From Candidatus Magasanikiibacteriota bacterium (GTDB lineage: Bacteria > Patescibacteriota > Patescibacteriia > Magasanikbacterales > GWA2-37-8), in the NCBI GenBank assembly GCA_017991415.1, contig JAGOQR010000001.1, positions 405,992-469,991 of the forward strand: 64,000 bases of DNA, written 5' to 3'. Below are positions 26,625 through 29,600 of this stretch, piece by piece. The position numbers and the translations under genes were made by a program. The notes under the pieces are model-generated. The model saw only the letters and a program-made list of their open reading frames with translations, was not told the origin of the DNA and made no database searches. Positions within the stretch are counted from its first letter, which is position 1. Each line of letters begins with the position of its first letter.

Positions 26625-29600
26625 GTGCTTCTTTCGTGCGCTCGACCGATTAGTACTCCTCAGCTTAACATCTTACGATGCTTACACATAGAGCCTATCA
26701 ACCTCGTAGTCTACGAGGGGTCTGTAACGAATGTTAATCTTGAAGACGGCTTCACGCTTATATGCTTTCAGCGTTTATCCGTGCCAAATAATAGCTACCC
26801 AGCAATGCCCTTGGTAGGACAACTGGTACACCAGAGATTTGTTCTTTCCGGTCCTCTCGTACTAGGAAAGAGCCTTCTCAACATTCTACGCCCGCAACAG
26901 ATAGGAGACCGAACTGTCTCACGACGTTCTGAACCCAGCTCGCGTACCGCTTTAATTGGCGAACAGCCAAACCCTTGGGGCCTTCTTCAGTCCCAGGATG
27001 CGATGAGCCGACATCGAGGTGCCAAACCGGACCGTCTATAAGGACTATCGGGTCCGATCAGCCTGTTATCCCCGGAGTAGCTTTTATCCGTTGATCTTCC
27101 ACTCTCCTATTTGAGGTGGTCGGTTCACTAACTTCTACTTTCGTAACTGCTCGAGTTGTGACTCTTGCAGTAAAGCCAGCTTTTGCGTTTGCGCGTCCAG
27201 CTCGATTTCCATCCGAGCTAAGCTGACCTTTGTAAACGCCTCCGTTACATTTTAGGAGGCAACCGCCCCAGTTAAACTACCCATCAGACACTGTCTTCTC
27301 CGGCAGATTCATGTCGGAAAATTAGGCATAAAAACAAGTAAGGGTGGTGTCTCATCGTCGCCTTGCGGCTCCCACCTACTCTCAACATATTTATTCTTAT
27401 ACCAATATCAAATTGTAGTAAAGCTTCACGGGGTCTTTTCGTCTAGTTGCGGGTAGGAGGCATCTTCACCTCCCTTGCAATTTCACTGAGTCCCTCGTTG
27501 AGACAGTCCAGCCATCGTTATGCCATTCGTGCGGGTCGGAACTCACCCGACAAGGAATTTCGCTTATTGATTCCTCTACAATGGACTCTATCTTCACCCC
27601 GATTCTCGAGAGAGGCGGGGGCATAGCGTTTAGTCTCTGAGGGTTCCAACACATTGTTGGCCTTCCCTGCTGATCTTCCTGAATTCGCATTCAGGTTTTC
27701 CCAGCATATAGCTATGATCGGATTATATTTTATATTGCTATAAAATAAGGCAGCTTTTTTAAATGGCTTGTAAAAACAATTATCTGCAATGGTAATTATT
27801 TTTGGTACTGTTTACTATTTGCTATATCCGTCCCAATCCTAGTGAACTCAATGTTTGAATCCACTACCTTAGGACGGTTATAGTTACCGCCGGCGTTCAT
27901 CAGCGCTTCAGCTCAAGGCTTCATCTTGCGATTAACCTCTCCCTTTAACGTTCTGACACTGGCCAGGCATCACCCCCTATACATCATCTTACGATTTAGC
28001 AGGGAGCTGTGTTTTTGGTAAACAGTCGCAGCTGGTCTTTTGTTGTAGCCCATATTGCTATGGGCAGGCCTTATCCCGAAGTTACGGCCGTTGTATTGCA
28101 GAGTTCCTTAACGAGGGTTCTCTCATGCGCCTTGGTCTACTCGACCTATCCACCTGTGTCGGTTTACGGTACGGTTATACATAGCTTAACGATTTTTACC
28201 TTTTCTAGACACCTCGCTACTCTTAGTTGACTCCACCCGAAGGATTTGTCTCCATCTTGCGATACGTATATAACCAAAATACGCTAAAAGCTTAAAGATG
28301 TGCAATAAAAACCAAACTATGCACAGTGCTGGAATATTAACCAGCTCTTCCATCGGTTACGCCTTTCGGCCTGGCCTTAGGACCGACTAACCCTGGGACG
28401 ATTCGCGTTGCCCAGGAAACCTCGGATTTTCGGCGGGCAGGATTCGCACCTGCCTTTTTGCTACTTATGCCTGCATTCTTACTTCTTTACACTCCACCGC
28501 GGCTCACGCCTACGGCTTCAGCGCATAAAGAACATTCCTCTACCAATTTACTATTCCCGAAGGAATAATAAAGTTCGCAGCTTCGGTACCATATTTTAGT
28601 CCCGTACATTTTCGGCGCTAAAACTCTTGACCAGTGAGCTGTTACGCTTTCTTTAAAGGATGGCTGCTTCTAAGCCAACCTCCTGGTTGTTTGAGAATTA
28701 AAACCACCTTCGTTACACTTAATATGGATTTAGGGACCTTAGCTAGCGATCTGGGCTGTTCCCCTTTTGGCAATGAAGCTTAGCCCCCACTGCCTGTCTC
28801 CTAAGTTTTGGCTACTGGTATTCGGAGTTTGATTAAAAACGGTATCCCGAAGGACCCAATTCTCATCCAGTGCTCTACCACCAGCAGGAACACTTAAGGC
28901 TATACCTAGATATATTTCGAGGAAAACCAGCTATCACCGAGTTCGATTAGAATTTCTCTCCCATCCACAACTCATCTCCGAGTGTTGCACGGCTCGTGAG
29001 TTCGGACCTCCCCCTTTATTTCTAAAGGGTTCATCCTGGTCATGGATAGCTCACCCGGTTTCGGGTTATATGCGTGCCACTTAACGCCGGTTAAGACTCG
29101 CTTTCGCTGCGCCTCCGCCCCAGAGGGGCTTAAGCATTGCGACACACAACATACTCGCAGGCTCATTCTTCAATAGGAACACGGTCACCCTTGCGGGCTC
29201 CCGCTCTTTGTAAGTGTACGGTTTCAGATACTATTTCATCGCCCTCACCGGGCTACTTTTCACCTTTCCCTCGTGGTACTTGTCCACTATCGATCACCAA
29301 AAGTATTTAGTCTTAGACCATAGTCGGCCCGATTTCAGACGGAATTTCACGAGTTCCGTCTTACTCAAGAACAATAGCAATGATAGCTGATTCTTTTAAT
29401 ATACAGGACTGTTACCTTCTTTGGTTGTCCTTTCCAGAACATTTTACTAAGAATCAATTTCTCACTCGACATACAGAAAGTCGACACTACTGTCTTATTA
29501 CCCTATATAAACAACGGTCTGTCCTTTAAATTGCAGTTCAAAGTTAATCCGAAGACCAACCTATTACCACAAAAACATTTATATAGTTTAGACTTTTCCC

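Follow-up and report, generated by a model that had tools for sequence, protein, structure and literature searches.

A predicted group I intron lacking the terminal guanosine at site L1931 in a 23S rRNA gene from Candidatus Magasanikbacteria

Position 1931 of large subunit (LSU) ribosomal RNA (rRNA), termed L1931 in Escherichia coli numbering, is a classical site of group I introns in Simkania, Thermotoga, Synechococcus and organelles (PMC1995217). The subgroup of these introns is disputed, with assignments to IB4 or to an IC1-like type (PMC1995217; PMC11019260). A survey of the candidate phyla radiation (CPR) assigned 45% of the 23S rRNA insertions to group I introns and catalogued position 1931 as one of the sites bearing LAGLIDADG genes (Tsurumaki et al., 2024, PMC11270868). 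A natural exception to the canonical guanosine at the intron end (omega-G) comes from Coxiella, where one 23S rRNA group I intron "lacks the canonical omegaG" and is self-splicing by the title of the original report (Raghavan 2007, J Bacteriol 189:6572, cited in PMC11270868). Both Coxiella introns are spliced from pre-23S rRNA (PMC4990558). Here, we describe an element that interrupts the 23S rRNA gene in a stretch of 64,000 nucleotides (the window) of contig JAGOQR010000001.1 from a Candidatus Magasanikiibacteriota bacterium. Our comparisons support a group I intron with a normal 5' splice site and without a terminal omega-G.

The 23S rRNA gene occupies the minus strand at 26636..29861 (RF02541, 2417 bits, model positions 1-2925), and the element is the only large insertion in it (2925 model positions plus 301 nt). 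Alignment to the LSU model places one insertion of approximately 301-303 nt between ...CCGUCCUAAGGU(AG) and (AG)CGAAAUUCC, or with longer flanks between ...GUAACUAUAACCGUCCUAAGGU(AG) and (AG)CGAAAUUCCUUGUCGGG.

27565..27865, minus strand: group I intron of 301 nt at site L1931, delimited by RF00028 and by the boundaries of homologous introns.

The intron starts with AGUGGAUUC and ends with GGAAUCAAUA, and its G+C content is 38.9% compared to 47.1% in the exons. No endonuclease-sized open reading frame (ORF) is present within the 301-nt insertion, which means that the LAGLIDADG homing endonuclease characteristic of L1931 introns is absent. A first-pass annotation of the window had described an ORF-less group I intron in the form of an insertion of about 300 nt with AG at both junctions, located at the junction of helices H69 and H71 and containing the core elements Q, R and S. 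This description holds: the insertion follows H69 directly, at position 1931 in E. coli numbering, AG does occur at both junctions (...AAGGU-AG-UGGAUUC ... UCAAUA-AG-CGAAAUU), and Q (GAUCAGCAGG, 27675-27666), R (CUCAGAGACUAAACG, 27641-27627) and S (GAAGAUAGAGUCC, 27595-27583) each occur exactly once. The coordinates given at that stage, 27566-27868, were right to within 1-3 nt, the exact extent being 27865..27565. The E. coli numbering of the site is anchored on m5U1939 and the pseudouridines of H69 as landmarks. A scan with the Rfam model RF00028, which the first-pass annotation had proposed as a check, matched the minus strand at 27564-27773/27785, corresponding to the 3' two thirds of the insertion, with 51.3 bits (E = 4e-10) in the whole window and 53.3 bits (E = 1e-12) in a 601-nt slice, above the gathering threshold of 50 bits.

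To place the insertion relative to the exons, homologous introns were collected. In a scan that covered one genome per species, a pattern for the R...S core detected introns at the same place in the CPR metagenome-assembled genomes (MAGs) L002, L003, L004, L009, L012 and L013 (three-digit L numbers are handles of loci). A metagenome scan anchored on the S element and the 3' exon, with a pattern that demanded a canonical S element, a short P9 and the 3' exon AGCGWAATTCC, returned at least 120 loci. The L1931 set comprises 115 distinct introns among the matches listed from both scans, and all counts given below describe this sample. About 90 of the matches listed are complete insertions of 185-1226 nt, located between ...CCUAAGGU and AGCG(A/U)AAUUCC, with the downstream flank AGCGAAAUUCC. 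In these complete homologues the first intron bases are free to vary (UU, UC, AC, GU, AG, GA, AA, CG, UA and others), whereas AGCG follows the intron in every relative, a constancy that is partly imposed by the search pattern AGCGWAATTCC. The bacterial LSU consensus at the start of the 3' exon is GGUAGCGAAAUUCC. The variable first bases and the constant resumption at AGCG place the insertion after U1931. The closest relative among the matches listed, L009, reads AAGGU-UG-UGGAUUC where the window reads AAGGU-AG-UGGAUUC, and the L111 intron, from an independent assembly, is identical to that of L009. The UG in place of AG shows that the two bases after U1931 are intronic. By these sequence comparisons, the insertion is located between U1931 and A1932, i.e. 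at site L1931, the target site of I-CpaI. In the L1931 set, L037, L081, L090 and L113 encode LAGLIDADG-type ORFs (PF00961 with E of about 1e-25 in L037 and L113, the only two on which Pfam was run).

The 301-nt extent corresponds to 27865..27565 if the 5' exon ends with U1931 and to 27863..27563 if it ends with G1933. The first-pass annotation had named these two options, a 5' exon ending in G or an intron without omega-G after the expected U, and had suggested folding P1-P10 with the internal guide sequence to examine them. The following elements define the splice sites:

27747..27754, minus strand: internal guide sequence GCU-GCCUU (GCUGCCUU), complementary at 8 of 8 positions to AAGGU/AGC and found at the homologous place in relatives.
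27866..27870, minus strand: 5'-exon strand of P1, AAGGU (E. coli 1927-1931), which pairs with GCCUU at 27751-27747.
27562..27564, minus strand: start of the 3' exon, AGC (A1932-C1934), P10 partner of GCU at 27754-27752 by sequence complementarity.
27565..27565, minus strand: omega position (last intron nucleotide), A and not G according to the homologue comparison.

Within the intron, the guide GCUGCCUU follows the 5' splice site at a distance of 111 nt. The 5' splice-site U, U1931 (27866), faces G27751 as a U.G wobble, which recurs in 10 of 10 relatives in the alignment (MAFFT alignment A1). Outside this alignment, the exon sequence AUGGU is accompanied by the guide GCCAU in L060, L072, L094 and L075, a compensatory change that supports P1. 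P10 is formed by GCU (27754-52) and AGC (27564-62), where the invariant exon allows no covariation signal. Relatives with a short P1 loop (L015, L077, L042 and others) follow the canonical pattern AGGU/(5-15 nt)-G(C/U)U-GCCU(U). An alternative P1 made of an 11-bp hairpin and the following A, with a U1931-A pair and no wobble, was dropped because the short-loop relatives reveal the guide G(C/U)UGCCU(U). P1 and P10 fix the 5' splice site at 27866/27865 and the 3' splice site at 27565/27564, and the last intron base is therefore A27565. Of the two options, the second is thus supported by the comparison with homologues: the 5' splice site appears normal and the intron lacks a terminal omega-G. Intron nucleotides 1-3 (AGU) can pair with the guide GCU before splicing, and the extension of P1 into the P10 part of the guide is the usual arrangement. 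AG is found at both junctions because the intron AG(U) and the exon AGC share the guide GCU.

A register shifted by two bases would restore a terminal G, with a 5' exon ending after 27864 and G27563 as omega-G, and the mature rRNA would be identical owing to the AG duplication. In this register, the terminal-A introns that start with AG (window, L004, L049 and L061) would regenerate the correct exon and gain the terminal G, and the two omega-G sisters L012 and L050 leave the boundary ambiguous whichever register is assumed. However, the cleaved pair would then be G-C with the invariant U.G two pairs away, P10 would be reduced to about 1 bp, and L009/L111 (UG), L113 (GG), L037 (UC) and L060 (UA) would yield mutant or truncated rRNA at A1932/G1933, two positions that read AG in the bacterial LSU consensus as well as in every retrieved 3' exon. 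A start with AG is also frequent in omega-G introns (about 13 of 80 by visual count). We consider the shifted register very unlikely; the first option of the initial annotation, a 5' exon ending in G1933, is disfavoured by the loss of the wobble, the shrinkage of P10 and the terminal-A introns that do not start with AG.

The terminal A is not confined to the window. Of the 115 distinct L1931 introns listed, 102 end with G and 13 (about 11%) with A, and the terminal-A cases are same-length G-to-A differences from the nearest omega-G relatives listed, distributed over several lineages (at least five). The window's clade contains the terminal-A introns of the window, L009/L111, L013, L004 and L002, with the omega-G introns L050 and L012 interleaved. 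L049, L003, L107 and L037 form another terminal-A group, the nearest omega-G introns listed for L061 and L060 are L120 and L133, L068 is 85% identical to the omega-G introns L078, L041 and L030, and the nearest listed relative of L113 is L086. All eight complete terminal-A introns contain the guide that forms the U.G wobble, and four of these introns do not start with AG. Terminal A is kept in hosts with 23S rRNAs that are only 84.5% identical (window and L004), and the clade members compared differ by compensatory changes in P2, P5, P6a, P8 and P9 that also accumulated among the terminal-A members. The terminal-A introns L037 (704 nt) and L113 (623 nt) retain intact LAGLIDADG_1 ORFs, and terminal A is therefore not restricted to decaying, immobile copies. 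On the same contigs (L015-L134), about 48 introns with clear boundaries at other 23S sites, assigned by flanking sequence to roughly L2500, L2593, L1917/1923 and a few others, all end in G. The difference between 13/115 and 0/48 has a Fisher p of 0.011, uncorrected for phylogeny, and the terminal G may be lost specifically at L1931. No core position was found by inspection that separates terminal-A from terminal-G relatives.

The helices P2-P9 were assigned by hand with the Rfam alignment as guide and tested on the window aligned with nine relatives (MAFFT). The support given below consists of pair counts in this alignment and of separate folding of each helix (RNAfold, 10 relatives):

27727..27746, minus strand: P2 hairpin (AUUUUAUA GCAA UAUAAAAU), 7 of 8 pairs changed on both sides.
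27622..27716, minus strand: P3 (27716-27711 with 27627-27622), 100% of cells paired, 3 pairs changed on both sides.
27641..27706, minus strand: P4-P6 domain, placed by the Rfam alignment, with compensatory changes in P5 and P6a, also among terminal-A members.
27706-01/27673-68, 27695-89/27684-78, 27667-65/27643-41 and 27660-55/27651-46, minus strand: P4, P5, P6 and P6a, respectively.
27583..27637, minus strand: P7, formed by G27637, bulged A27636 and GACU (27635-32) with AGUCC (27587-83), 100% of cells paired.
27620-16/27601-27597, minus strand: P8, enclosed by P7.
27566..27582, minus strand: P9 hairpin AUUG/CAAU, with the variants AUUG/CAAU, AUCG/CGAU, UUCGC/GCGAA and AGGC/GCCU.

P3 encloses P4-P6 and the 5' strand of P7. 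Standard pairs occupy 89.7% of the alignment cells, compared to 33-42% when the partners are slid by 1-3 columns, and 43 pairs are changed on both sides compared to 8-16 in the slid versions; none of 500 shuffles reached the observed pairing values. All cells are paired in P3, P4, P6, P7 and P8, and compensatory changes occur in P3, P6, P6a and P8. When the segments were folded separately, P5 was found as CCUGAAU/AUUCAGG, CUCAAC/GUUGAG or UCCCGAC/GUCGGGA, and P6a as CCAACA/UGUUGG, CUGACA/UGUCAG or CCAAUC/GAUUGG. The pair G27635-C27584 beside the bulged A27636 is the equivalent of the guanosine-binding pair of P7 and is unchanged; we take it to correspond to G264-C311 of Tetrahymena. Judged from this covariation, the group I core P1-P9 is complete. 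The term 'degenerate CPR-type', used in the first-pass annotation, is appropriate for the CPR host and the loss of the endonuclease gene, but not for the ribozyme core with its compensatory substitutions.

In loop 9 (GAGGAAUC, 27569-27578), the motif GGAAU is complementary to AUUCC of the 3' exon (AUUCCU, approximately 27552-27557). Most of the listed L1931 introns contain GGAAU, GGAAG or AAGGA 5-10 nt upstream of the 3' splice site, complementary to the exon about 7-13 nt past this site, where the invariant exon yields no covariation signal. The loop-9 motif may represent a conserved tether for the 3' exon.

The covariation in the core also bears on the possibility that the insertion is no intron at all, but an intervening sequence (IVS) of the RNase III type or a lineage-specific expansion segment with chance group I motifs. 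The RF00028 score exceeds the threshold by only 1-3 bits, and CPR 23S rRNA genes hold many non-intron insertions, as stated in PMC11270868. However, the P1-P10 architecture covaries, the guide is complementary to both exons, and homologues at the same site carry LAGLIDADG genes. RNase III-processed IVS sites in 23S rRNA have been described (PMC4990558). The location of the insertion differs from the IVS helices H25 and H45, and a multi-helix ribozyme architecture at position 1931 was found instead of the simple extended stem in helix 9, 25 or 45 that defines an IVS. A non-intron origin is therefore extremely improbable.

The guide is displaced by a structured insertion of approximately 105 nt in the P1 loop (L1 domain), which separates the 5' splice site from the guide and is common to about 40 of the listed L1931 introns. 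It contains the following elements:

27841..27865, minus strand: L1a, 11-bp hairpin directly after the 5' splice site, 9 of 11 pairs changed on both sides (RNAfold, 10 relatives).
27772..27803, minus strand: L1b, second hairpin, found only in the close clade of the window by minimum free energy folding, 68% of cells paired in a poorly aligned region.
27835..27839, minus strand: 5' strand (GGAUU) of the tentative pairing PKa with AAUCC (27724-27720) in the segment J2/3 that joins P2 and P3, proposed from complementary variants.
27828..27834, minus strand: intron strand of PKb, GGGACGG, covarying with the exon in 40 introns.
27871..27877, minus strand: exon strand of PKb, CCGUCCU, corresponding to E. 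coli 1920-1926 in the 3' strand of H69, with standard pairs in 95.7% of cells and 2 pairs changed on both sides.

PKa occurs in the variants GGACU/AGUCC, GGAUU/AAUCC and UGACU/AGUCA; no pair is changed on both sides in alignment A1, and we propose this pairing tentatively. For PKb, the exon variants CCG, CGG, UCG, UUG, CGA and UGG go with GGC, GUC, AGC, GAC and GUU in the intron. The three variable exon positions are complementary to the intron in 34 of 40 distinct introns, compared to 16.3 +/- 3.0 after shuffling, and none of 10000 shuffles reached 34; this count is inflated by the relatedness of the introns, although several different exon types contribute to it. Together, PKb, a helix of 7 bp, and P1 bind the 12 exon bases 1920-1931 contiguously. 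We infer that the domain acts as an exon clamp that would hold the 5' exon and keep H69 unfolded until splicing. We know of no published exon clamp of this kind in group I introns, based on a literature check that was not thorough.

With moderate confidence, we favour the reading that the element is a group I intron at L1931 that is excised by the standard guanosine-initiated pathway in two steps and ligated without recognition of an omega-G. During step one, exogenous G in the intact P7 site would attack after U1931, while the 5' exon is held by P1 and by the extra exon-binding helix. In the second step, ligation would occur at A27565/A27564 without specific recognition of a terminal G and would probably be slower, with the 3' splice site set by P10, by P9 abutting P7 without a spacer and by the pairing of GGAAU in loop 9 with AUUCC of the exon. 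The predicted ligated product is ...CCUAAGGUAGCGAAAUUCC, and the excised intron would have the ends G+AGUGGAUU ... AUCAAUA. The intron would descend from LAGLIDADG-encoding L1931 introns by loss of the endonuclease gene. Splicing without omega-G is plausible because the Coxiella 23S rRNA intron without omega-G is reported to be self-splicing and is spliced in vivo. In addition, CPR rRNA insertions were reported to be absent from transcripts (PMC11270868).

Several points weigh against this reading. In tRNA group I introns of Patescibacteria, a terminal G-to-C exchange abolishes ligation and an intermediate of intron and 3' exon accumulates (PMC13011429). Doubt about splicing without omega-G arises from the tested introns, all of which need the terminal G, and no compensating change was found by inspection of the P7 guanosine-binding pair or elsewhere in the intron. 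The RF00028 score lies only 1-3 bits above the threshold, and PKa, like the mechanistic function ascribed to the L1 domain, is inferred. The Simkania intron at L1931 is reportedly presented as unspliced in the title of a 1999 paper by Everett.

An impaired second step would be in line with part of these points. The 5' splice site could be cleaved and ligation be inefficient, leaving the insertion in the mature 23S rRNA as an additional domain beside H69, or the 23S rRNA in two pieces (1-1931 and 1932-end) once the intron has been trimmed off. The guanosine-binding pair is unchanged and nothing adapts the site to an A, and the same-site Simkania intron was reportedly published as unspliced. A terminal G is normally needed for ligation (PMC13011429), and IVS elements provide examples of 23S rRNA that functions in fragmented form (PMC4990558). 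However, P1, P10 and the catalytic core are under structural selection in the terminal-A members despite deep divergence of the hosts, which would be needless for a spacer. The site also borders H69 at the subunit interface. CPR rRNA insertions were reported to be removed from transcripts (PMC11270868), and the Coxiella intron without omega-G is spliced. We regard an impaired second step as rather unlikely, and ligation without omega-G recognition remains the preferred reading.

The recurrence of the terminal A would allow a further interpretation, which we put forward as a tentative and rather doubtful possibility. The terminal A might be a recurrent, heritable and functional trait specific to L1931 rather than a lesion, with ligation proceeding without base-specific recognition of the terminal nucleotide because the splice sites are clamped by exon-binding elements, namely the helix with the H69 strand, the pairing of loop 9 with the 3' exon and P9 abutting P7. 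If true, the requirement for the second step would be relaxed in these natural group I ribozymes, and the clamp on the exon would count as an apparently undescribed peripheral element.

At least 20 distinct insertions of 191-250 nt were observed at 23S rRNA position 1931 (L033, L045, L121, L056, L055, L088, L018, L020, L109, L046, L029, L096, L057, L066, L073, L115, L126, L105, L070, L063 and L097). These mini-introns retain P1, the L1 domain, P2, P3, P7, P8, P9 and omega-G, and apparently lack the whole P4-P6 domain: the 5' strand of P3 is followed by only 4-6 nt and then by AGAGACCA. Their guide GCUACCU forms a U1931-A Watson-Crick pair and not the U.G wobble. RF00028 remained below the threshold on mini-introns (22.5 bits, 17.9 bits or no hit), and they would count as unclassified insertions in surveys. 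From their sequences, the mini-introns may represent a reduced ribozyme type.

The 23S rRNA of the window shares 95-97% identity with its counterpart in Candidatus Magasanikbacteria bacterium RIFOXYD1_FULL_40_23 (locus L009, MFRA01000003.1), and the aldolase encoded beside the 5S rRNA gene matches a Ca. Magasanikbacteria MAG protein (P0001) with 100% identity. Because of these identities, the assignment of the host to Candidatus Magasanikbacteria (CPR/Patescibacteria) is supported. The 5S rRNA gene (26421..26527) forms a pair with the minus-strand 23S rRNA gene in the 64-kb window, in which a single 23S rRNA gene was seen. No 16S rRNA gene was found within the window (1-64000), and the rRNA genes appear to be unlinked. 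A tRNA gene is located at 31246-31329 on the minus strand, about 1.4 kb upstream of the 23S rRNA gene. L012 (CAYHBZ010000001.1) and L013 (CAZBWU010000004.1) are MAGs labelled 'uncultured Gammaproteobacteria', with 23S rRNAs that are 83% and 96% identical, respectively, to the Magasanikbacteria 23S rRNA of the window and contain the same intron; an error in either the labels or the binning is probable. A search via the aldolase neighbourhood gave no extra introns of the clade, as the contigs of the homologues stop before 23S rRNA position 1931. Two relatives sharing this neighbourhood, L140 (62-598) and L142 (188-724), have a LAGLIDADG_1 ORF at the contig edge, at the expected place of the 3' part of the 23S rRNA gene, and both contigs are broken inside the rRNA operon. 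Further endonuclease-bearing 23S rRNA introns probably exist in the clade of the window.

Introns at L1931, rRNA introns of the CPR and the natural loss of omega-G have all been published already, the element itself is a matter of routine annotation, and the loss of the endonuclease gene is common. We could not find a published description of the recurrence of terminal A at L1931 or of the exon-binding domain in the P1 loop. The resolved anatomy consists of a guide displaced by 111 nt through the P1-loop domain and of an extra helix that captures the 3' strand of H69. Textbooks regard a terminal guanosine as invariant and mutagenesis identifies it as essential, yet the intron of the window does not have it, and as far as we found, only the Coxiella intron has been published as a natural exception. 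The terminal A in about 11% of the 115 listed L1931 introns suggests a softer omega-G rule at this site. L004 with L050 or L012, and L068 with L078, provide matched natural A/G pairs for studies of the second step. For annotation, the boundaries of L1931 introns cannot rest on a search for 'U...G'.

The closest described relatives are the L1931 introns of Simkania negevensis, Thermotoga spp., Synechococcus spp. and organelles of algae and amoebae, which are inserted at the same point between U1931 and A1932 (PMC1995217; PMC11019260). They belong to the same L1931 family, with a P1 of the AAGGU/GCCUU type including the U.G wobble, and relatives carry genes with a single LAGLIDADG_1 motif. In contrast, the intron of the window has 301 nt and not 654-700 nt, lacks an endonuclease gene, contains the insertion of about 105 nt in the P1 loop with the exon-binding helix and ends with A instead of G. 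The surveys of CPR rRNA insertions (Brown 2015; Tsurumaki et al. 2024) share the host phylum with this intron, and the latter, as far as it was consulted, does not describe the anatomy of the splice sites, the nucleotide at the intron end, the L1 domain or the helix that binds the exon (PMC11270868). A natural bacterial 23S rRNA group I intron without terminal G is a feature that the window has in common with Coxiella. The Coxiella intron is inserted at site 1917, belongs to subgroup IB2 and is unrelated in sequence as far as known. In Coxiella burnetii, the intron without omega-G is reportedly Cbu.L1917. The absence of omega-G recurs in 13 of the 115 listed L1931 introns from several lineages, whereas Coxiella provides one published intron. 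The LSU intron of Tetrahymena thermophila (L1925), which serves as the mechanistic paradigm, needs G414 for exon ligation. It shares with the intron of the window the P3-P8 core, a P7 with bulged A and a G-C guanosine-binding pair, the U.G wobble and P10, whereas the latter lacks P5abc, has different peripheral domains and ends with A.

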